Assembly (NCBI GenBank): GCA_947053455.1
Contig: CAMRSV010000001.1
Span: 36,937-100,936, forward strand
From: an uncultured Alphaproteobacteria bacterium
Lineage (GTDB): Bacteria > Pseudomonadota > Alphaproteobacteria > Rs-D84
Direction: 5' to 3'
DNA: 64,000 nucleotides
Below, piece after piece: positions 5,627 through 52,253 of this stretch. The notes below the pieces were generated by a model, which was given only the letters and a program-made list of their open reading frames with translations, ran no database searches and was not told the origin of the DNA. Position 1 is the stretch's first letter, and each line of letters starts with the position of its first letter. Position numbers and translations under genes: made by a program.

Positions 5627-5669
5627 AATTTTCCTTTACCATAAATCAAGTTTATGTAAAAATATGCAT

Positions 5670-5915
5670 ATCACAGAGAATTTCTGTGATGGGGCGTCGA
5701 AACCCCTTATAGAGGGTCCGAATAAATTCGGACATTAATGGCACAAGGAAATAATTAATTATTTTCATAGTTGTGCCGCCTTCCAACCACAAAAGGTTGG
5801 AGGATGGCTGAATATATTGAATAGGCCTGCAATTCTCTATAATTGTTTCGAACCTCCAACCACTTGAACTTTTCCAGTGGTTTTTATTTATTAAAAGATT
5901 CAATGGAGTATAGAA
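5670..5915 (+). promoter_or_regulatory. conserved structured 5' leader, copy 1 (candidate riboswitch/attenuator) upstream of cysteine-rich secreted protein gene
   Basis: Perfect IR ATCACAGA-N5-TCTGTGAT (5670-5690). Box GGGGCGTCGAAACCCC (5691-5706). Hairpin CCTTCCAACC-ACAAAA-GGTTGGAGG (5777-5807). Then GAACCTCCAACCACT fused to terminator-like hairpin AACCACT..AGTGGTT+TTTTT (5850-5886), then RBS GGAG and ATG 5916. The same architecture recurs at three other loci. Confidence 0.7.
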
Positions 5916-6518
5916 ATGAGAAAATATCTTATAACTATTTTTGTTTTGTCTTTATCTTTGCCCGCCCGCGGCAACTTGGTAAGTGGCTCATATAAAGAAG
6001 GTGATTGGTGCTATAGTGATTGCACCTATCAAGGATGCCCGTCCGTCCGCAGATTTTCGTGCGGCGGATATTGCAACATGTATGAAATGCCCGATTGGCC
6101 AATCTGCAATAGTTATAACGAAGATGAATCCTGCGTAATTTGGAAAAGCAGCACAGAAATGTATTATTGCAGCCTAGGTGGGGAACATGCCTGCTACGAA
6201 ATTATTGGTTATGGCAGTAGCAAATATGAGACTTATAACACGACAAACCATAGTGTAAAATACTCTGAAATTCAGTTCGAACCAGATGACAACTATTATG
6301 ACAATTGCTCCATAGAAGACATTATCGAAGTTTCTTATGGATGCGCGGCCGGATATTATGTTTCAAGCGGATATGGTTCTAATATTTATTGTTCGACATG
6401 TCCCAACGGCGGTACAAGTTATATCGGAAATATTTCTCAATCTAATTGTTATTTACCCGCGGGAAATTTTAGCGATGCAACCGGCACCGGACAATATACA
6501 TCAAACTGCTACTGGTAA
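5916..6518 (+). CDS. secreted cysteine-rich protein, paralog 1 (EGF/ephrin-receptor-like Cys repeats)
   Basis: 200 aa with a signal peptide and about 20 Cys. The C-terminal ~60 aa (CAAGYY..C..CP.GG..C.LPAGNF..TGTGQY..C) is shared with the 37001..37618 protein. Confidence 0.75.
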   Translation: MRKYLITIFVLSLSLPARGNLVSGSYKEGDWCYSDCTYQGCPSVRRFSCGGYCNMYEMPDWPICNSYNEDESCVIWKSSTEMYYCSLGGEHACYEIIGYGSSKYETYNTTNHSVKYSEIQFEPDDNYYDNCSIEDIIEVSYGCAAGYYVSSGYGSNIYCSTCPNGGTSYIGNISQSNCYLPAGNFSDATGTGQYTSNCYW

Positions 6519-6543
6519 AAGACCGGATATAAAAACGCAAAAT

Positions 6544-6578
6544 AAAACGGGACAATAATACCGCCCCGTTTTATTGTA
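6544..6578. terminator. bidirectional terminator between cys-rich gene 1 and tatA
   Basis: Hairpin AACGGGAC..GCCCCGTT flanked by A-run and T-run. Confidence 0.6.
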
Positions 6579-6583
6579 ATAGA

Positions 6584-6886
6584 CTATTTGCTTTTTGATG
6601 GTTTCTTCACTGTCTTTTTTGAGGAAGACACCGTTTTTTTATTGTTCGCTTTGGGTAAAGTTTTGGTTACCGGCTTTTTCACCGCGGCTTTTGCTTTTGA
6701 TGCAGGCTTTTTCGCAGAATCCATCGCAGGCGCATGTTCACTCTTTTGTTTTGTAATTTCCTTTTTAAAAATATTCAATCCATCCGCCAGATTTTTCATC
6801 ATGCCGGGAATCTTGCCGGACCCGAACAAAACTATAACTAAAACCACTATGATCAGTATTTCAGCCCAACCAAATCTTCCAAACAT
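6584..6886 (-). CDS. tatA: twin-arginine translocase TatA/TatB-family protein
   Basis: N-terminus FGRFGWAEILIIVVLVIVLFGSGKIPG..L..GL..FKKE matches the TatA/E signature, followed by a Lys-rich tail. Confidence 0.8.
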   Translation of the reverse strand: MFGRFGWAEILIIVVLVIVLFGSGKIPGMMKNLADGLNIFKKEITKQKSEHAPAMDSAKKPASKAKAAVKKPVTKTLPKANNKKTVSSSKKTVKKPSKSK

Positions 6887-6901
6887 ATTTATCCCCTTTT
6901 A

Positions 6902-7678
6902 TTATTTTGCAACATAACAGTCCAAACCGTCGGATTTCGCATTTCTGCAAAAACCGTTGGCATCATTGGCATTTGAAAACGCAATACGCAGTCTGTATGT
7001 CGTCGTTCCATTCGGCAATTGCGCGGCTAAAATTATGAACTGCTTTCCTGTAAAAAGACTACTGTGGGCCCCCAGAATTTGCTTTTCAGCGCGTTCGGCC
7101 AATGCACGTGTGCTATATGAACCAAATTGAACATACCATGCACCCTTTGGCGCTGCCTGCGGTTTCGGCGCAGCTTTTTTGGCCGTCTGTTTTGCCGCCG
7201 GCTTTTTTACCGCAGCGGGCTGTTTTGATTGAACTTGCTTTGGCGCATCCGCCTTATCCGGGTTAAATGTGACGGGCTTTCTATCCTCTACCACGCGGAC
7301 GGGAACCCCCGGCGTATCTGTTGTGGTGACCACTGGCGCAGCCGGCGCCACAGGTGGCGTCACCGGTGCAGGCTGTACAACGGGTTTTGGTGCATCCGGT
7401 TTTTGTGGTTCCACAACGGGTTTTACATCCGGCATCCCACTCGCCCCATCAATCACAACGACGGGTGCATCCAAATCAACATCTATTGAAGAAGATGAAT
7501 CATTACCAATTGTACGAACAATAATATATGTCGCCAGTATGATAACTACTACCCCTAACCCCAGCAACAACCACGGCTTTTTCGGGCGCGGCGCGACAAA
7601 CGGTGTTGCATCTGGCAATGCATCCATGGACACATCATCGTCCAGGTCTAATAAATCCAAATTTTTATCGTCATTCAT
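6902..7678 (-). CDS. SPOR domain-containing protein (Pro-rich linker, TM anchor)
   Basis: C-terminal SPOR-like domain (WYVQFGSYSTRALAERAEKQI...YRLRIAFSNANDANGFC). The likely start MNDDKNL is at 7678; the ORF extends to 7735. Confidence 0.7.
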   Translation of the reverse strand: MNDDKNLDLLDLDDDVSMDALPDATPFVAPRPKKPWLLLGLGVVVIILATYIIVRTIGNDSSSSIDVDLDAPVVVIDGASGMPDVKPVVEPQKPDAPKPVVQPAPVTPPVAPAAPVVTTTDTPGVPVRVVEDRKPVTFNPDKADAPKQVQSKQPAAVKKPAAKQTAKKAAPKPQAAPKGAWYVQFGSYSTRALAERAEKQILGAHSSLFTGKQFIILAAQLPNGTTTYRLRIAFSNANDANGFCRNAKSDGLDCYVAK

Positions 7679-7790
7679 AATGATTCCCCCATTACTCTTT
7701 GACTGTATTATATCATAAAAATATTCCCATAACAAAGAATATCTGGCAAAAAACAGTCTGTTTTAGCGGAAAATTTTCTTAAAATGCGCA

Positions 7791-37000: not shown

Positions 37001-37618
37001 CTAGTTATATGTGCATTGCGCCGACATATTATAAGTTCCGGTATTATCATTGTACGTTCCGGCCGGCAGTTTACATTGCGTGACAGACGTGCTGCCGGCC
37101 GCGCTGGTACCATACGTCGTCGTGCCCGCAGAATTTAATTCACCGGGACAACGCGTGCACTTAAGCGACGATGTCGTACCAACGCCGTAATAGCCCGCCG
37201 CACATCTATATTCATTCGTCGCCGTCTCATCACCAGTTTTTCCGCATCCGGAAACAACATTATATTTTCTTTCGCGACCAGTGCCGGACGGGCGCCATTC
37301 ATTTGTGGTGCGCATTAAGCATCCGCAACCTATAAGGTTCGGGGGGTTATCGCTATCAACAACCGCCGTGGCACCGTTAAACACCTCTCCACACATGGAT
37401 TCACAATCTTCAACATTTCCCGAATATCCATCATCATAATAGCAAAGATTTGACCCATAGTCATAACACTCGTCAACATCATTACATTCGCCGGGTGATA
37501 TGGGCTCACTCACACCACCAAAAGTATAAAGCATATCCACTCCTGGATCATCACTATATAAATAAGCATTTGCCGCAAGCGGAAACACTAGAAACAATGC
37601 GATAACAATGCTTTTCAT
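37001..37618 (-). CDS. secreted cysteine-rich protein, paralog 2
   Basis: Signal peptide present. The C-terminal domain is homologous to the 5916..6518 product (CAAGYYG..C.RCPGE...CKLPAGTYNDNTGTY..C). Confidence 0.75.
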   Translation of the reverse strand: MKSIVIALFLVFPLAANAYLYSDDPGVDMLYTFGGVSEPISPGECNDVDECYDYGSNLCYYDDGYSGNVEDCESMCGEVFNGATAVVDSDNPPNLIGCGCLMRTTNEWRPSGTGRERKYNVVSGCGKTGDETATNEYRCAAGYYGVGTTSSLKCTRCPGELNSAGTTTYGTSAAGSTSVTQCKLPAGTYNDNTGTYNMSAQCTYN

Positions 37619-37795
37619 TTAACCCCTCTTTTTATTACAAAAAAACCACTAAAAATCAGTGGTTGGAGGTTCGAAACAATTATCAGGAATTGTGGGCTTA
37701 TTTAGTTATATCGCCACCCTCCAACCCATGGTTGGGGGAAAGTTTTTTCCTGATAAGGGGTTTCGACACCCCGTCCGCGCAACACCCGCCGACAA
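37619..37795 (-). promoter_or_regulatory. conserved structured 5' leader, copy 2
   Basis: Read in gene orientation: GGGGTGTCGAAACCCC box, hairpin CCCCCAACC-ATG-GGTTGGAGG, then GAACCTCCAACCACT-GATTTTT-AGTGGTTTTTTT terminator-like hairpin, then RBS and ATG. Confidence 0.7.
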
Positions 37796-37864
37796 ATTCA
37801 TTATAAATAAAATAAGAAATAATGTAAAATAAAATATGATTATGCAATCCAAACTTGACGCTAT

Positions 37865-40314: not shown

Positions 40315-40375
40315 AAACACGCGCCGCACAAAAACAGATTGCGACGTGAAATATTTTCTCATATAATAAAAAATG

Positions 40376-40567
40376 ATATGGGGTGTTCCCATATCGGGGT
40401 GTCAGAGCCTATGTCACGGCGTCCTTTGTTGGACGATAAATCTCCTGCCGGTCGGCAGGAGGGTTGATGTTATATATTGAAGACATCACACAATTTCCGT
40501 GAAATTGCTCTGAACCTCCTGCCACTCTAATAGAGTGGTTTTATTTTGATACGAGGGGTGAGTAAAA
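40376..40567 (+). promoter_or_regulatory. conserved structured 5' leader, copy 4 (compensatory-variant copy)
   Basis: GGGGTGTCAGAGCC box. The hairpin is CTCCTGCC-GGTC-GGCAGGAG instead of CCAACC/GGTTGG. The downstream segment GAACCTCCTGCCACT-CTAATAG-AGTGGTTTT carries the matching change. Confidence 0.7.
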
Positions 40568-41767
40568 ATGAAATTCAAAAAAATATCATATGCACTTGTT
40601 GCAATTATATGTACCATTGACGCATATGGCAAGGATATGCCTTCAAATATAAAAGAAGCATGGGGCAGCCCTACACTAATTTCTGAATCTTGGAGTCGCG
40701 GCAAAGGCCACGACAGCAGCACAAACATGCCAGACCAGACATTCTGGATGAGTAAAAAGGTTCGCGCCGATAACGCAAACGACGAAGCGATTGTAATTGT
40801 ATACATGGCGCGCCAAGTTGTAGAACACGGTGGATACTTTTGCGCGACGCAACTGCGTTCACGAAACAGCGGAAAATCCGGATGCCCGAACATTTGGACC
40901 CAATATCAAAATCCAACCGGCGATTTTGAACGCACATGCTTTTGGTTATGCGAACCGGGATACACCGGCGAAAATTGTGTCAGTGGTAAGGCAAAATCCG
41001 CAGACGCATGCAAATACACAAATTTATCCGCGGCCACACTATTAAAAGATATAGGGTTTCAACAAATGGGTGGCTATGACACCGCAACGGTGGAAAGCGC
41101 CATACATGATGCCGGCGCACGATTTTTTTATAGCAATACAACTCGCAAATCCGACGAATCTGATGTCATCCTTTTGGCAAAAGAATATCTTGAAAACGGC
41201 CACGGAATTGTTGCATCACCCGCAACATTTTCCGCGCACGGTGGCATGTGGAATGCAGAGAATTATTCCGATGAATGGCTGGATTGCAAATATGGCGATT
41301 CTAATTTAACCGTGACCGCTAATGGCGGCGGGTACACAACAAAAAAACTGTGCATGCCGGGATTTGACGGCGAAGATTGCACAACGACATATTGCAAAAC
41401 ATGCGACGATACGCTTGCCAAATACAATGATAAAACAGGTTCCTGCAGTGACTGTATTGAAAACCATATCCGCAACAAAGAAGGCAAATGCGAAAAGTGC
41501 CCGGCCGGAACAACTGCGGTACAGGATAAAAAAATCTGCCTAGAGTGCAAGAAAACCGAATATGTAAAGGATGGCGAATGTGTGCCACGTGATGTAATTG
41601 AAAAAAGCGTGCTTTATAACTGCTATCCGAATGAAAACGCAAATGATTTCAAGGCATGTGTATCAAGTACATGTACAAATGACGCAAAGGTAAAATGTGT
41701 AACCGCGCAAAAACAAATTGGCACCAAAAAATGCACCGGCGGTAAATGGGGTACATGCACAAAATAA
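40568..41767 (+). CDS. secreted cysteine-rich protein with EGF-like repeats (399 aa)
   Basis: Signal peptide present. Canonical EGF-like motifs CFWLCEPGYTGENC and CMPGFDGEDC, followed by a long C-x2-C-rich tail. Confidence 0.7.
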   Translation: MKFKKISYALVAIICTIDAYGKDMPSNIKEAWGSPTLISESWSRGKGHDSSTNMPDQTFWMSKKVRADNANDEAIVIVYMARQVVEHGGYFCATQLRSRNSGKSGCPNIWTQYQNPTGDFERTCFWLCEPGYTGENCVSGKAKSADACKYTNLSAATLLKDIGFQQMGGYDTATVESAIHDAGARFFYSNTTRKSDESDVILLAKEYLENGHGIVASPATFSAHGGMWNAENYSDEWLDCKYGDSNLTVTANGGGYTTKKLCMPGFDGEDCTTTYCKTCDDTLAKYNDKTGSCSDCIENHIRNKEGKCEKCPAGTTAVQDKKICLECKKTEYVKDGECVPRDVIEKSVLYNCYPNENANDFKACVSSTCTNDAKVKCVTAQKQIGTKKCTGGKWGTCTK

Positions 41768-47962: not shown

Positions 47963-49261
47963 TTATTTTCCAAGACACAACTGGGAAAAAGTAGCATCCA
48001 TAACCTCGGCCGCGGTGATTGTCCCCAAAATCTTGCCAATGGCGTCGGATGCACGGCGCGTGTGTTCGGCAAAAATATCATAATCGTCCCGGGGTGACAA
48101 TACGGCTGATTTCAATTCATCAGCCGCCATCTCCAGCAGGCCACGCGTACGCACATTTATGGCAAGCGCACCATCTGCCCCATCCAACATTTCATGCATC
48201 CGATCCGCTATCGCGCATAATAAATCATCAATTCCCGCACCAGTTTTAGCGGAAACGTAAACGGCGCCTGGAATATTGTTTTCCGAAATTAAATCCGATT
48301 TATTAATAACCAGCATTTCATTCGTACCAACGCACACATCAACATTTTCATCATAAACACGCAATACCAAATCCGCGTTTTCAATCTCGTCATGCGTTTT
48401 TTCAATCCCTATTTTCTCAATCGCATCCGACGCGTCATCACGCAGACCGGCCGTATCCGAAATATTTACCATGAATCCGTCAATATCAATTGTGGCACCA
48501 ACAACGTCGCGCGTGGTCCCAGGCGTGTCCGACACAATTGCGCGATTTGCACCGACAATGCGATTAAATATTGATGATTTTCCCACATTTGGCCGCCCCG
48601 CAAGCGTTATATTAAAACCGCCGCGCACCGCACGAACCGCCGCATAGCGCGACAATGCCGTATTTATTTCATCACACAGCGCGGATGCGGCGACGCGAAT
48701 TTTTTCACCAATATTTGCCGGTAATTCATCGTCCGCATAGTCAGTCATCGCGGCCGCGTATGCCGAAATTTCAATCATACGGGCACGCCATGCATCATAA
48801 ATTTTTGCGTCCCCACCCATCATTGAACGCAGTGCGGATTTTCGTTGCGCATCAGTTTTGGCATCCAACAATGCCGCCAAACCGTCAACATCCGTCAAAT
48901 CCATTTTATCATTGTAAAACGCGCGACGGGAAAATTCACCTGGCACGGCCATACGGGAGCCGCGTGCGCGTAAATCATCAAATATCTTTTCAATTACGGC
49001 CGCCGCACCGTGACAATGAATTTCAATTACATCTTCGCCGGTAAATGAATTTGGTGCCGAAAAATAAAGCATCAACACCTGGTCTATTACATCACCATGC
49101 ACATCGCGCAAATTTGCAAGATATGCGTGGCGTGCCCCTATTGATGCACGGCCGGTCATAGATAAAAACGCATCACGCAAATTGTCACCCGACACGCGGA
49201 TAACTGCAACCCCGGATTTACCATGGCCGCTGCTTAATGCAAAAATGGTGTCCGCATTCAT
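47963..49261 (-). CDS. mnmE: tRNA modification GTPase MnmE
   Basis: N-terminus MNADTIFALSSGHGKSGVAVIRVSG, a G-domain, and the C-terminal C(I/L)GK motif. Confidence 0.92.
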   Translation of the reverse strand: MNADTIFALSSGHGKSGVAVIRVSGDNLRDAFLSMTGRASIGARHAYLANLRDVHGDVIDQVLMLYFSAPNSFTGEDVIEIHCHGAAAVIEKIFDDLRARGSRMAVPGEFSRRAFYNDKMDLTDVDGLAALLDAKTDAQRKSALRSMMGGDAKIYDAWRARMIEISAYAAAMTDYADDELPANIGEKIRVAASALCDEINTALSRYAAVRAVRGGFNITLAGRPNVGKSSIFNRIVGANRAIVSDTPGTTRDVVGATIDIDGFMVNISDTAGLRDDASDAIEKIGIEKTHDEIENADLVLRVYDENVDVCVGTNEMLVINKSDLISENNIPGAVYVSAKTGAGIDDLLCAIADRMHEMLDGADGALAINVRTRGLLEMAADELKSAVLSPRDDYDIFAEHTRRASDAIGKILGTITAAEVMDATFSQLCLGK

Positions 49262-49824
49262 TTTGATATTTCCTTTAGCGCGCGCGGCACCAGTGCCGCA
49301 ACATCCATCCCCGGATTTTCCGATACCAATTTTTGCGCCATATCAACAACATCTATGCGCCGGTACCCCAACGCCTCTAACGCAGATAGCAAATCCGGCA
49401 ACGCGCCGCCGGGCGCCTCCATTACATCAAATGACGCGCCACCAACCTTGGACTTTAATTCCAAAATTATTTTTTCTGCGACCTTTTTCCCGACACCGGG
49501 CGCCGTCGCAATTGTTTTTGCGTCACCAGTTGCAATCGCAGACATTAACGTTTCGACCTTTATCGTAGATAGAATTGCCATTGCAACTTTGGGGCCGACC
49601 CCAGAAACGCCGGTCAACTGATTAAACAAATTCTGTGCACCAAGCGATGAAAAGCCGAACAAACGAATGGAATCTTCACGAACGACGGTTTCAATCCACA
49701 ATGTCACGGCCGCCCCCGGCGTCAGATATTCAGGGGTAAAAACCTTGTACCCCACAGGTCCCGCCATAACAATTGCGTAACCATCACCTAAAAAATCAAC
49801 AATGCCTTGCAATTTGCCAATCAT
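49258..49824 (-). CDS. ruvA: Holliday junction branch migration protein RuvA
   Basis: MIGKLQG... start, two HhH motifs, 188 aa. Confidence 0.9.
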   Translation of the reverse strand: MIGKLQGIVDFLGDGYAIVMAGPVGYKVFTPEYLTPGAAVTLWIETVVREDSIRLFGFSSLGAQNLFNQLTGVSGVGPKVAMAILSTIKVETLMSAIATGDAKTIATAPGVGKKVAEKIILELKSKVGGASFDVMEAPGGALPDLLSALEALGYRRIDVVDMAQKLVSENPGMDVAALVPRALKEISK

Positions 49825-49874: not shown

Positions 49875-50591
49875 ATGAGTGGACACAGCAAATGGCACAA
49901 TATACAGCATAAAAAGGGTGCCGTGGACGCCGCCCGCAGCGGTTTGTTCACAAAACTGGCACGTGAAATAACGATGGCTGCAAAACTGGGCGACAAGAAC
50001 CCGGACAATAATCCGAGATTGCGTCTGGCAATTTTACAGGCACGTAAAAATTCCATGCCCAACGATAATATCAAACGCGCAATTGACAAGGCATCGGGTT
50101 CAAACACCGAAAACTATGTCGCCGTCCGATACGAAGGATATGGTCCTAACGCCGTCCCAGTTATTGTTGAGGCGTTGACCGACAACCCGCGCCGCACCGT
50201 ACCTGAAATTCGAAACATATTTGCCAAGAATGGTGGAAATATGGGCGAAGAAGGAAGTGTTGTTTTCATGTTTACACGTGCAGGACAAATCATGTACCCA
50301 GCGTCTATCGGCAAGACCGAAGATGAAATGATGGAAATTGTCATGGATGCGGGCGCAGACAATCTGGAATCATCACCGGAAGGATTTATTATCACAACCA
50401 AACCTGATGATTTTATTACCGTGCAAAAGACACTGTCAGACAAGTTGGGCGAACCGGAAAACGCGGAACTGACCTGGTTGGCAAACATGCCGGTTGATTT
50501 GGATGACGAAGCATACGCCAAGGTTGAAAAACTGGTTGATAGCCTGGACGACAATGACGACGTTCAAAAAGTGTTTACAGCGGCGGCATAA
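49875..50591 (+). CDS. yebC: YebC/PmpR family DNA-binding transcriptional regulator
   Basis: MSGHSKWHNIQHKKG start; 238 aa. Confidence 0.92.
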   Translation: MSGHSKWHNIQHKKGAVDAARSGLFTKLAREITMAAKLGDKNPDNNPRLRLAILQARKNSMPNDNIKRAIDKASGSNTENYVAVRYEGYGPNAVPVIVEALTDNPRRTVPEIRNIFAKNGGNMGEEGSVVFMFTRAGQIMYPASIGKTEDEMMEIVMDAGADNLESSPEGFIITTKPDDFITVQKTLSDKLGEPENAELTWLANMPVDLDDEAYAKVEKLVDSLDDNDDVQKVFTAAA

Positions 50592-50608
50592 AACCGTCTA
50601 TGTACAAG

Positions 50609-50633
50609 AAAACGGGGCATTGCCCCGTTTTTA
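50609..50633. terminator. bidirectional terminator
   Basis: AAAACGGGGCATTGCCCCGTTTTT. Confidence 0.8.
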
Positions 50634-51527
50634 CTTTAATTCAAACAAATGCATTATTATATCACCACCTTCATATGTTGCCTCGTCTGCCAAGCCGGTA
50701 ACATTGGTGTTATTAGTATTTGTATTCCATTGACCCACGGGGGCATATGATGTCGTCGCGGACACATATTTTTCATGTGCTGTGTCGATAAAAAATTGAA
50801 CAATATTATTCCCCAAAATCCCAGCATAACCCACCGGTTGATCAAACACTGCCATATACGCATATGACACGGATGCGGATCGCCCATCCAATGCATCAAT
50901 TAGATTTGGTTTGTCTGAAATCCCAGGCCCCTTGTAACGTGCAACAAACAGGTATGTTCCCGGTCCTATGGTTCCACCCATACACATTTCATCAACCGAA
51001 AAATCATCTATGTTTGAACTGTTTATATTCTGATTTATTTTCGCACAGGATTTTACCCGACGCCATACGCTTATGTCTGATTTCGGAATAAATTTTTCAA
51101 CCGCGGACAATGTCATAAATTTATTTACATTGCCAAGCCCATCTGGCTGTGCATTGGCATTGCGACTAAAATTAACTTCCGGACAACCTATTGCGCCATA
51201 TGTGCATACCGCGCGATGAAGCCCACCCGTACAGTAATGACCCATGCCGCAATTGACACATTCACTGTTATTCATCAAGTACTGGCCAGGCTCGCACCAC
51301 TTGCCCACCCAATAATCTTTCGCCCCCACCCGCAGGCGCAGCGCCCCGGTCGGCGCAGCGGATGAATACATTGCACCATACCATTTCTCGTCTGCAATAG
51401 AAACCGCCAACGCAGGCGAAGTATTTCGCGTGGAATTAAGTGGCACTGACCGGTCGCCAAAATGCAACATGCGCGCATAACATGCGGCATTAAAAAATAA
51501 TGTAAAAAATAAAACTATATATCTCAT
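50631..51527 (-). CDS. secreted cysteine-rich protein, paralog 3 (298 aa)
   Basis: Signal peptide present. The N-terminal half carries C..G.Y....C..C..G.YC.GG repeats related to the other paralogs, and the C-terminal half is Cys-poor. Confidence 0.65.
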   Translation of the reverse strand: MRYIVLFFTLFFNAACYARMLHFGDRSVPLNSTRNTSPALAVSIADEKWYGAMYSSAAPTGALRLRVGAKDYWVGKWCEPGQYLMNNSECVNCGMGHYCTGGLHRAVCTYGAIGCPEVNFSRNANAQPDGLGNVNKFMTLSAVEKFIPKSDISVWRRVKSCAKINQNINSSNIDDFSVDEMCMGGTIGPGTYLFVARYKGPGISDKPNLIDALDGRSASVSYAYMAVFDQPVGYAGILGNNIVQFFIDTAHEKYVSATTSYAPVGQWNTNTNNTNVTGLADEATYEGGDIIMHLFELK

Positions 51528-51713
51528 CTACCGTTACGACGTAATAAATGCCGTCATATAAATCAGACGGCTGGAGGTTAGAAACTATAAAACGGTATAG
51601 TGTCGTTTATTCAGTATATTCACGAGCCCTCCAACCGAATGTTGGAGTTTTTTTCGTCCACACGGACGCCGTTTTAAAGGTTTCTACACCCCACAGCATT
51701 TATCTTATGCTGC
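51528..51713 (-). promoter_or_regulatory. conserved structured 5' leader, copy 3 (diverged)
   Basis: Gene orientation: hairpin CAGCAT..ATGCTG, box GGGGTGTAGAAACC, hairpin CTCCAAC-ATTC-GGTTGGAGG, then CTAACCTCCAGCC fused to hairpin GCCGTCTGATTTATATGACGGC with an A/T tail, then ATG. Confidence 0.6.
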
Positions 51714-51773
51714 GAAGGAATTATAACATAAAATATTCTTTATATGCCACAGATAATTTCTTATAATAATCAC

Positions 51774-52253
51774 ATGACCAGAATACTTGGGATTGATCCC
51801 GGACTTTTGCATACGGGTTGGGCTGTGATAGAAAGTAAAGGTTCAACACGTAAATATGTCGCAAGTGGCGTTATTTTGCCGCCGGCGAAACTCCCGTTTG
51901 CACAAAGACTGGCCATAATTTTTCGCGGTGTGGATGAATTATGCGAACAATTTCAACCAGACTGTTGCAGCATAGAAGTCATATTCGTTAACGTAAACCC
52001 CAAGACAACATTGATTCTGGGTCAGGCACGCAGTGCGGCAATCGTCGCGGTTGCAAACCGAGATATACCGGTTTATGAGTATGAGCCAAATAAAATAAAA
52101 AAGGCGCTTACCGGTGCGGGACATGCGGACAAATCACAGATTGATAAAATGGTGCGAATATTGATGCCGGCAGCACACCCAAAAACACCAGACGAAGCTG
52201 ATGCAATCGCAATCGCATTGGCGCACAGCAATATGAATAAATTCGTTTTATAA
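51774..52253 (+). CDS. ruvC: crossover junction endodeoxyribonuclease RuvC
   Basis: MTRILGIDPGL start (catalytic Asp), 160 aa of RuvC-like sequence. Start at 51774. Confidence 0.9.
   Translation: MTRILGIDPGLLHTGWAVIESKGSTRKYVASGVILPPAKLPFAQRLAIIFRGVDELCEQFQPDCCSIEVIFVNVNPKTTLILGQARSAAIVAVANRDIPVYEYEPNKIKKALTGAGHADKSQIDKMVRILMPAAHPKTPDEADAIAIALAHSNMNKFVL

Follow-up and report, generated by a model that had tools for sequence, protein, structure and literature searches.

We analysed a 64,000-nucleotide stretch of contig CAMRSV010000001.1 from an uncultured Alphaproteobacteria bacterium (the window), in which the genes yebC and ruvC are held apart by a leader RNA and a minus-strand gene for a predicted secreted protein. 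Pfam searches bore out the positions given for yebC, ruvC and ruvA in a preliminary description of this DNA (Table 1). The two flanking genes are separated by 1182 bp with an opposite-strand gene in between, so the same-strand adjacency of the E. coli type is not found here. Our analysis showed that positions 50606-51773 are one complete copy of the standard expression cassette of Candidatus Enterousia-like gut Alphaproteobacteria. We favour, with a probability of roughly 0.7, the reading that this cassette is made up of a promoter, a leader with two alternative folds, a secreted-protein gene and a shared terminator, that it acts as a default-off switch and that it is an old gain at this site. 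Enterousia has been placed in the uncultured order Rs-D84, with most genomes smaller than 1 Mb (PMC12306168). The identical cassette protein and neighbourhood were present in several gut metagenome assemblies. Related loci are referred to by L numbers, which label metagenome yebC loci, genome-scan loci and members of the cassette-protein family.

Table 1 Features of the yebC-ruvC junction, the four leader copies of the window and the parts of leader copy 3 (positions of the window)
Feature	Position	Strand	Evidence or remark
mnmE, behind ruvA	47963-49261	-	
ruvA	49258-49824	-	Pfam
yebC (TACO1/YebC family), upstream flank of the cassette	49875-50591	+	Pfam PF01709 and PF20772, E 1e-52
Bidirectional terminator-like hairpin AAAACGGGGCA/TGCCCCGTTTT, common to the convergent yebC and cassette gene	50608-50632		Terminator scan; inverted repeat I7, 11 nt, 100% complementary
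Cassette gene, 298-aa predicted secreted protein	50631-51527	-	Open reading frame between yebC and ruvC
ruvC promoter-like site TTTATA-17-TATAAT	51739-51767	+	Promoter scan; ends 6 nt before ATG
ruvC, downstream flank of the cassette	51774-52253	+	Pfam PF02075 (RuvC), E 1.5e-44
Leader copy 1	5664-5892	+	R2 115 bits; before gene of 200-aa Cys-rich secreted protein, 5916-6518 (+)
Leader copy 2	37634-37799	-	R2 133 bits; before gene of 205-aa Cys-rich secreted protein, 37001-37618 (-)
Leader copy 4	40369-40550	+	R1 57.9 bits, R2 121 bits; before 399-aa Cys-rich gene, 40568-41767 (+)
Leader copy 3	51539-51719	-	R2 160 bits; before 298-aa gene, 50631-51527 (-)
Copy 3: -10 box TATAAT, preceded by TGt	51720-51725	-	Sequence; the cassette's own promoter
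Copy 3: Pa, 5'-terminal hairpin, sequence varies between copies	51714-51692	-	All 8 pairs with double changes
Copy 3: 5' clamp strand (GGGU and a, X, Pb, A-rich linker)	51691-51648	-	Minimum free energy fold; formal pair counts
Copy 3: GGGU and a (UAGAAAC)	51691-51680	-	
Copy 3: X (UAAAACGG)	51676-51669	-	
Copy 3: Pb hairpin CGUCC-GUGU-GGACG	51668-51655	-	
Copy 3: A-rich linker	51654-51648	-	
Copy 3: P0 hairpin (seg1, loop, seg2)	51647-51628	-	seg1, seg2 and seg3 change together in variant copies
Copy 3: seg1 CUCCAACA	51647-51640	-	
Copy 3: seg2 GGUUGGAGG (DNA GGTTGGAGG)	51636-51628	-	
Copy 3: P2 hairpin, apex GAAUAUACUGAAUAA, conserved apical GAAUAUAYUGAAUAA	51625-51603	-	Alignments A2 and A4; compensatory stem changes
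Copy 3: P3 hairpin CUAUA-CCGUUU-UAUAG, loop = X'	51600-51585	-	Covariation; window inverted repeats I2 and I5
Copy 3: a' GUUUCUA	51585-51579	-	a:a' covariation
Copy 3: seg3 CCUCCAGCC (DNA CCTCCAGCC)	51577-51569	-	P1 partner of seg2, or clamp and terminator strand
Copy 3: intrinsic terminator stem GCCGUC/GACGGC	51571-51550	-	6-bp stem, 10-nt loop
Copy 3: weak U-tract AUUUAUUA	51549-51542	-	5 T in the 8-nt tail

The leader, about 180 nt long, begins at an extended -10 promoter and ends with an intrinsic terminator. The copy at the yebC-ruvC junction (copy 3) formed one structured unit, which scored highest of the 84 copies found with our full-length covariance model R2. A leader at this site had been recognised before, and its boundaries, previously set at 51528-51713, were close and are corrected here to 51539-51719. 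Furthermore, the window holds four leader copies, of which three had been known. All four stand before genes for different proteins; those of the other three cassettes belong to families other than that of the 298-aa protein, and a tblastn search found no paralogue of the latter in the window. The N-terminus of the 298-aa protein is hydrophobic, as is usual for signal peptides, and six of its nine Cys residues are invariant, all within residues 78-115. The Cys-richness formerly ascribed to the gene is thus local to this block and not global. The block is TNFR/ephrin-receptor-like and the protein has a C-terminal beta-rich domain, with no Pfam family at cut-off and a sub-threshold TNF-receptor-like Cys repeat as the sole hint; a sub-threshold TNFR-like repeat was also seen in the 399-aa protein behind copy 4. 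The family of the 298-aa protein has 16 members among 5.8 billion proteins.

The leader itself is far more widespread. Among the matches listed, the leader pattern occurred at no fewer than 117 genome loci, almost all in Candidatus Enterousia, uncultured gut Alphaproteobacteria or termite-gut "Rickettsiales" metagenome-assembled genomes. A typical leader with a Cys-rich gene was also seen in an 'uncultured Muribaculaceae' bin (L008, CAZJGX010000004.1), probably a contig mis-binned from an Enterousia-like genome. We parsed 145 distinct copies; alignment A2 comprises 115 distinct copies, and the 84 copies of model R2 came from 65 sources. The window has 4 copies in 64 kb and the nearest yebC loci have about one every 17 kb; should that density hold throughout a genome of about 0.9 Mb, extrapolation gives on the order of 50 copies. 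At one locus (L073:2271-4207), five leaders lie within 2 kb, three of them back-to-back with no open reading frame (ORF) between them (2271-2466, 2493-2685 and 2740-2920); the first two of these are weak (42-48 bits), and the group may be a tandem arrangement or decaying duplicates. No Rfam 15 family of any kind reached the gathering threshold anywhere in the window, and E-value searches of Rfam around copies 2, 3 and 4 returned only chance sub-threshold matches. We found no description of the leader RNA in the literature on Enterousia, Rs-D84 or RF32 riboswitches, nor any for the segment GGUUGGAGG.

Promoter and terminator recur across the family. A -10-like hexamer, often with an upstream TG, lies 34-35 nt before the conserved GAAAC (in the strand termed a) in 45 of 107 copies, and a -10-like hexamer of any kind was found in 75 of the 107 compared with 22 of 107 coding controls. 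A terminator hairpin with 5 or more T among the next 8 positions was present in 108 of 113 copies. In copy 3, the hairpin GCCGTC..GACGGC at 51550-51571, the overlapping CCTCCAGCC (51569-51577) and GGTTGGAGG at 51628-51636 were all present as described earlier. The preliminary description had regarded this hairpin as a swapped stem in place of AACCACT..AGTGGTT, which we located at the two other known copies (near 5858-5882 and 37644-37664; none expected by chance). The difference is real, but there is nothing special about it, as it falls within the ordinary variation of 113 copies. In these, the 5' arm begins, after the A that ends CCTCCA, with ACCAC (58 copies), ACCGC (45) or ACCGT (7), and more rarely with GCCAC (1), GCCGT (1, copy 3) or ACCGA (1). 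The A-to-G change in segment 3 (seg3) of copy 3 keeps a G-U pair with segment 2 (seg2), as had been noted, and gives a G-C pair in its own terminator. The terminator stems of orthologous leaders are not that of copy 3 either; L075, for one, has ACCGCU..AGCGGU.

Covariation showed that the leader can take two mutually exclusive folds, A and B. Fold A is nested. In it, the 5'-terminal hairpin Pa is followed by a long-range clamp in which GGGU and a (UAGAAAC) are held against a' (GUUUCUA) and ACCU of seg3; X pairs with the P3 loop (X'), and Pb, P0 (segment 1, seg1, with seg2) and P2 form, leaving the 3' part of seg3 free for the terminator. In fold B, seg2 GGUUGGAGG instead pairs with seg3 CCUCCARCC; the resulting helix, P1, encloses P2 and P3 in a three-way junction and takes away the 5' arm of the terminator. 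P1 and the terminator are mutually exclusive because seg3 supplies the first 3-4 nt of that arm. P1 likewise cannot coexist with the clamp, and P3 faces competition from X:X'; in the alternative to P1, the 5' part of seg3 pairs with the GGGU clamp while its 3' part enters the terminator stem. Seg1 and seg3 are identical in sequence.

Fold A was recovered by free energy and by covariation. The minimum free energy (MFE) structure of copy 3 is fully nested (z = -5.2) and contains Pa, the clamp, X:X', Pb, P0, P2 and the terminator hairpin. Independent folding of 100 different copies gave MFE structures of which 99 contained a:a' and 99 contained X:X'; P0 and the GGGG:CCUCC extension were each present in 94, Pa in 88 and Pb in 86. 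In all 105 copies compared, the base that varies within a pairs with its partner in a' (35 A-U, 69 C-G and 1 G-C), and fully complementary a/a' heptamers come in at least 18 versions, such as UAAGACC/GGUCUUA, UGAUAAC/GUUAUCA, UCAGAGC/GCUCUGA and UAGCGAC/GUCGCUA. X makes on average 8.6 contiguous pairs with the P3 loop of its own copy against 5.0 with that of another copy, and Pa stems average 9.2 bp against 5.9 bp for cross-paired halves. In an alignment of 84 sequences, 93.0% of the cells of fold A were paired, compared with 74% in shuffles and 37-46% in slid controls, and 39 of 49 pairs showed double changes; none of 500 shuffles reached the observed values. The crude comparison of own with crossed partners did not separate P2 or the terminator, whose stems fall into few sequence classes, and their support comes from pair counts instead. 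Among orthologous leaders, which are 66-77% identical to copy 3 while the proteins behind them are 37-73% identical, every helix is kept and X/X' covary (AAAACGG/CCGUUUU, AAAACAG/CUGUUUU and AAAGCAG/CUGCUUU).

For fold B, RNAalifold applied to the core chose P1 (seg2:seg3) enclosing P2 and P3. P1 and P3 together were 96.7% paired, with double changes in 9 of 14 pairs, and again none of 500 shuffles reached these values. Compensated seg2/seg3 pairs were found among the copies from the profile search, namely GGCAGGAGG/CCUCCUGCC with seg1 CUCCUGCC (copy 4 of the window), GUCAGGAGG/CCUCCUGAC with seg1 CUCCUGAU, and GGCUGGAGG/CCUCCAGCC. Three copies carry GGUUGGAGU/ACUCCAACC, in which the altered pair exists only in P1. 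In copy 4, seg1/seg2/seg3 read CUCCUGCC/GGCAGGAGG/CCUCCUGCC, a/a' UCAGAGC/GCUCUGA and X/X' UCACGG/CCGUGA, all compensatorily changed.

Downstream of 112 distinct copies, the first ORF almost always opens with a signal-peptide-like sequence. Many of the downstream proteins contain 5-11% Cys, and others are of non-Cys families; Pfam recognised only a trypsin-like protease, the Listeria-Bacteroides repeat and sub-threshold TNFR/ephrin-receptor-like repeats. One leader precedes the gene of a 652-aa secreted protein with 61 Cys (L112:5436-7391, plus strand). A short form of the leader, lacking Pb and with a weaker P0, precedes small genes of the XRE-type helix-turn-helix (HTH) class. Short forms were seen at L007, L027, L049, L059, L091, L122, L136:1120-1281 and L140:2889-3050; the downstream genes of L007 and L049 encode XRE-type HTH proteins of 70-78 aa according to Pfam, those of L027, L059, L091 and L122 were judged to do so by N-terminal sequence only, and those behind the leaders of L136 and L140 do not encode signal-peptide proteins. 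The HTH proteins behind short-form leaders could be regulators in the same circuit.

As read from the sequence, the order of transcription would favour fold A. The clamp strand and seg1 would be transcribed first, allowing P0 to form once seg2 has been made; partners would then already be in place for X', for a' and for the 5' half of seg3, and the terminator would follow. Fold A is thus predicted to be both the thermodynamic and the co-transcriptional outcome, with premature termination by default and the gene off. Expression would require an effector that favours P1 or that blocks the 5' clamp or seg1. The apical GAAUAUAYUGAAUAA of P2 and the A-rich linker are likely the best candidate recognition sites, because they are the only conserved elements outside the pairing scheme. 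The P2 apex consists of two GAAUA units, sometimes split by an inserted hairpin. With one leader before many secreted-protein genes and XRE regulators, much of the secreted and surface protein output may be co-regulated.

This segment logic has familiar counterparts. The trp leader, T-box elements and transcriptional riboswitches also lie between promoter and start codon and use mutually exclusive hairpins that have one strand of an intrinsic terminator in common, and the competition of seg1:seg2, seg2:seg3 and seg3:terminator in the leader is attenuator-like. Unlike known attenuators, the leader locks both antiterminator strands, with P0 on seg2 and the clamp on a', X' and seg3; unlike the classical ones, it has no conserved leader peptide, and its seg1 equals seg3 in sequence. 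A T-box responding to tRNA-Cys, through pairing of UGGA in seg2 with UCCA-3', was considered and dropped, as there is no conserved specifier and many of the regulated proteins are not Cys-rich; the T-box model gave no match at gathering score in the window and none among the sub-threshold matches listed, while specifier features were not separately analysed. Default termination relieved by a factor that stabilises an antiterminator, itself overlapping the terminator, is known from the ribonucleic antiterminator (RAT) targets of BglG/SacY, from ANTAR targets, and from PyrR and HutP, where a single factor can act on many leaders. The short direct repeat GAAUA-N4-GAAUA of P2 is reminiscent of repeated motifs for protein binding, but the leader lacks the defining motifs of the RAT, ANTAR, PyrR and HutP systems and is far larger than RAT or ANTAR targets.

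The closest likeness was to the small RNA (sRNA) family sRNA-Xcc1 (RF02221). Five leaders matched its model over positions 1-87, with P1, P2 (AAUA..UAA), P3 and J3/1 in register and the three-way junction present, at 29.7 (L026), 37.9 (L204), 36.8 (L030), 36.8 (L011) and 34.3 bits (L022); none reached the gathering score of 53 bits, and copies 2, 3 and 4 of the window gave no RF02221 match even in permissive searches. Both RNAs have a 9-bp G-rich P1 (GGCCGGGGG/CCCCCGGCC in sRNA-Xcc1, GGUUGGAGG/CCUCCAACC in the leader), a P2 apex AAUA...UAA, a P3 with a loop of about 6 nt, J3/1 UUNGAN and a 3' ACC followed by U's, and both are multi-copy in the genome and lie upstream of protein genes. The leader is twice the length of sRNA-Xcc1, its extra parts being Pa, the a/X clamp, Pb, seg1 (P0) and a terminator hairpin of its own. 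sRNA-Xcc1 is a Xanthomonas/Xylella small RNA of integron cassettes and genomic islands; it was described as a trans-acting RNA of 88 nt, verified by Northern blot in Xanthomonas (PMC2996969), and occurs 7 times in Xylella, with 5 of the copies in a cluster (PMC12189769). Genes downstream of it include symE in integron cassettes (bioRxiv 10.1101/2025.06.18.660453) and an ORF6N gene in APSE phage (bioRxiv 10.1101/2020.03.17.996009). The leader, in contrast, is chromosomal and not in integrons, plasmids or phages. For sRNA-Xcc1 itself, BLAST of the RF02221 consensus against plasmids gave nothing, and a pattern scan of viral contigs returned only unrelated GC-rich inverted repeats. Our reading is that the leader is a distant, much-extended relative or analogue of sRNA-Xcc1 that is evidently cis-acting.

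Three other accounts of the leader were weighed. It may be a metabolite or second-messenger riboswitch, in which a ligand bound at the multi-helix fold or at the P1/P2/P3 junction would shift the balance between terminator and antiterminator. c-di-GMP-I (GEMM) riboswitches occur in many copies per genome before secreted, surface and regulatory genes, often with terminators, and tandems occur. The leader resembles their regulon in its many copies before secreted and surface proteins, and the back-to-back leaders of L073 are comparable to their tandem arrangement. It is also a large, pseudoknot-capable and strongly covarying RNA, the intrinsic terminator attached to it is in competition with another pairing, as seg3 is shared by P1 and the terminator, and the P2 apex and A-rich linker are conserved unpaired stretches. 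On the other hand, the J3/1 strand (a') varies freely if it pairs with a, which leaves no conserved pocket; the three-way competition of the segments explains nearly all of the sequence conservation; and fold A needs no ligand to stabilise it. No known riboswitch model matched, the c-di-GMP riboswitch families all stayed below gathering score in the window, and the leader differs from c-di-GMP-I in fold and sequence. We therefore hold a ligand-binding riboswitch to be possible but doubtful.

Less likely again is a free-standing gene for a trans-acting RNA of the sRNA-Xcc1 type, whose terminator would merely be its 3' end. The default fold would indeed release a terminated RNA of about 180 nt with a U-tail and an A-rich stretch, sRNA-Xcc1 itself has been verified as an RNA of 88 nt, and 5 of the 8 leaders that gave any result matched RF02221 in full length and in register. 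These scores are sub-threshold, however, and the window's own copies are not among them. Moreover, the element is always co-oriented with a gene 30-160 nt downstream, which usually has a Shine-Dalgarno sequence and no evident second promoter, and the overlap of P1 with the terminator arm is a hallmark of an expression platform. Attenuation by a leader peptide appears highly improbable. Here a ribosome translating a mini-ORF of 6-8 codons (M-G-R/C-R-N-P) would stop the 5' clamp from forming; the clamp strand is exactly what it would have to cover, an ATG, TTG or GTG stands directly before GGG-YGU-MGA-AAC in about two thirds of copies, and an in-frame stop follows 6-8 codons on in 38 of 97. A possible mini-ORF of this kind, [AUG/UUG/GUG]-GGG-YGU-MGA-AAC-CCN-stop, lies over the clamp at 51693-51673 of the window. 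Yet about 31% of copies, including copies 2 and 4 of the window, have no start codon there, no Shine-Dalgarno sequence lies upstream, variation in a alters or abolishes the peptide, stop positions are not conserved, and no conserved ORF covers segment 1.

To place the cassette in the history of the locus, we fetched 80 yebC loci from metagenomes, across which YebC is 86-95% identical; 55 related loci hold both yebC and ruvC. The opposite orientation of ruvA and yebC, previously taken as a sign of an event at this site, proved ancient, since the layout of mnmE and ruvA on the minus strand and yebC on the plus strand was found in all 80 relatives. The yebC-ruvC junction itself is a rearrangement hotspot. 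The two genes are adjacent in the same orientation in 10 of the 55 loci, either with overlapping stop and start codons (TAATG; L136 and L140) or with 81-138 bp containing a terminator and a promoter (8 loci). Elsewhere they are in the same orientation with a gap of 202-395 bp (L175, L157, L143 and L142), separated by 1,067 bp with a 235-aa ORF (L155), by a secB-mltA-dciA block (21 rumen loci) or by a minus-strand Cys-rich gene (L127 and L128), or ruvC is inverted (17 loci). In the latter (L131-L134, L139, L141, L148 and others), it is the ruvC-orf92 pair that is inverted relative to yebC; the rumen loci with the secB-mltA-dciA block fall in the L147-L200 group. The promoter-like site of ruvC in the window suggests a leaderless ruvC mRNA transcribed from its own promoter, because the TATAAT box ends 6 nt before the ATG. 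The same geometry recurs in L075, L127, L145 and L162, relatives in which ruvC is parted from yebC.

The junction is empty at L124-126, L136, L137, L140, L145, L154, L162 and L193, and occupied in the window, L075, L127, L128, L204, L205 and L207; flanks are otherwise conserved, and the differences are between species, not strains. L075, found by a genome scan in a different species, has the exact layout of the window, with YebC 92%, RuvC 85% and RuvA 80% identical and the cassette protein only 37% identical. Four members of the cassette-protein family were looked up: L204 (73% identical, the closest cassette-bearing relative), L205 (41%) and L207 (38%) lie in the ruvC|yebC junction, and L206 (44%) lies between a HAD gene and an ACR_tran gene in an unrelated neighbourhood. 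All four and L075 carry a leader before the homologue. The order ruvC, leader with gene, yebC is thus shared with L075, L204, L205 and L207, and with L127 apart from the leader. At L127:5758-6830, an orthologue (43% identical) occupies the same position with no leader detectable even with filters off; it is a natural leader-loss variant. At L204, the cassette gene is separated from yebC by an extra 228-aa gene with a faint Gad2 match (1393-2079), so that this junction has gained yet another gene. At L128, a different gene (5771-7735, minus strand), coding for 654 aa with 59 Cys, stands behind a leader at the same junction. In a rough neighbour-joining tree of MnmE, RuvA and YebC, the window pairs with L127, next to L128 together with L136 and L140, the two loci with overlapping junctions. 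Lineages without the cassette fall outside, and cassette-bearing loci are nested among cassette-free ones.

The preliminary description had read the arrangement as insertion or mobility of the leader and gene. Insertion stands to the extent that empty sites in relatives point to a leader-gene cassette added to an ancestrally tight junction; that this was recent, or the work of a mobile element, does not. A recently mobile unit, whether MITE-like (resembling a miniature inverted-repeat transposable element), cassette-like or integrative, would fit the many copies in both orientations at many loci, the widely differing yebC-ruvC junctions, the homologous leader and gene of L206 elsewhere and the other Cys-rich gene behind a leader at L128. 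We found, however, no target-site duplication, terminal inverted repeat or att-like repeat at the cassette boundaries, where only short AT-rich chance repeats occur, and the significant inverted repeats of the region are the RNA's own helices. Nor is there an integrase, transposase or other mobility gene within about 8 kb of the cassette, whose flanks are housekeeping genes, or a tRNA at the locus; G+C content is ordinary (0.443 in the cassette and 0.458 in the window), and BLAST of the leader against plasmid and phage collections found nothing similar. The copies are not near-identical repeats, the differences between them being compensatory, and the orthologous position is common to at least five species, with protein identity down to 37%. 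Relatives with the same arrangement and no boundary signatures were what the preliminary description itself had held to speak against mobility; the site is occupied by the same gene in five other species, with proteins 37-73% identical. On these grounds a recently mobile element is rejected; that reading is largely refuted and retains very little probability. The cassette was shown to be a lineage-specific but old gain in one sub-lineage, vertically inherited since. Nevertheless, the leader and a homologous gene have moved or duplicated together at least once, because the L206 homologue lies in a different neighbourhood.

Several points weigh against the default-off, two-fold reading that we prefer. 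In copy 3 itself, the U-tract is weak and a Shine-Dalgarno sequence is not clearly present. Because alignment A5 was fitted to fold A, it is biased in that direction, though the a/a', X/X' and Pa comparisons are independent of the fitted alignment; as to fold B, the first search pattern fixed the P1 bases, P1 is nearly invariant (135 of 145 with the consensus) and its covariation comes from few sequences. When only nested pairs are allowed, fold A comes out about 24 kcal/mol more stable than a fold in which P1 is enforced; this figure would be too high if a:a' and X:X' persist in fold B as pseudoknots. Switching would thus need either a strong effector or the retention of these pseudoknots in fold B. 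The gene without a detectable leader at L127 indicates that the leader is dispensable in at least one lineage, and the leader before a UvrD-type helicase gene (L114:1209-3293, minus strand) fits a secretome regulon poorly. The tree that underlies the history of the junction is rough, and every functional step is inferred from sequence.

The real interest of the locus lies in the leader family, which is absent from the Rfam catalogue and has not been described before. For RNA biology, it is a well-supported orphan regulatory RNA of unusual design, in which both antiterminator strands are sequestered. The junction, for its part, is an example of a conserved operon junction broken up, with a self-contained cassette gained and ruvC apparently then on its own promoter. 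Tentatively, and as a broader proposal than the one preferred above, the leader could be a new class of RNA sensor, a distant and greatly extended relative of sRNA-Xcc1 acting as a double-locked terminator switch that gates most of the secreted and surface genes of Enterousia and the XRE set, with sRNA-Xcc1 before symE and other genes acting in cis too. This would offer a possible reinterpretation of the widespread sRNA-Xcc1 family. If it is true, the density found in the window could mean a gated set of the order of 50 genes in each genome of less than 1 Mb. In these uncultured gut Alphaproteobacteria with reduced genomes, one strongly conserved RNA switch before dozens of fast-evolving, Cys-rich, eukaryote-like secreted proteins of the TNFR/ephrin-receptor type would be the main control over what the bacteria present to their host and to other microbes.

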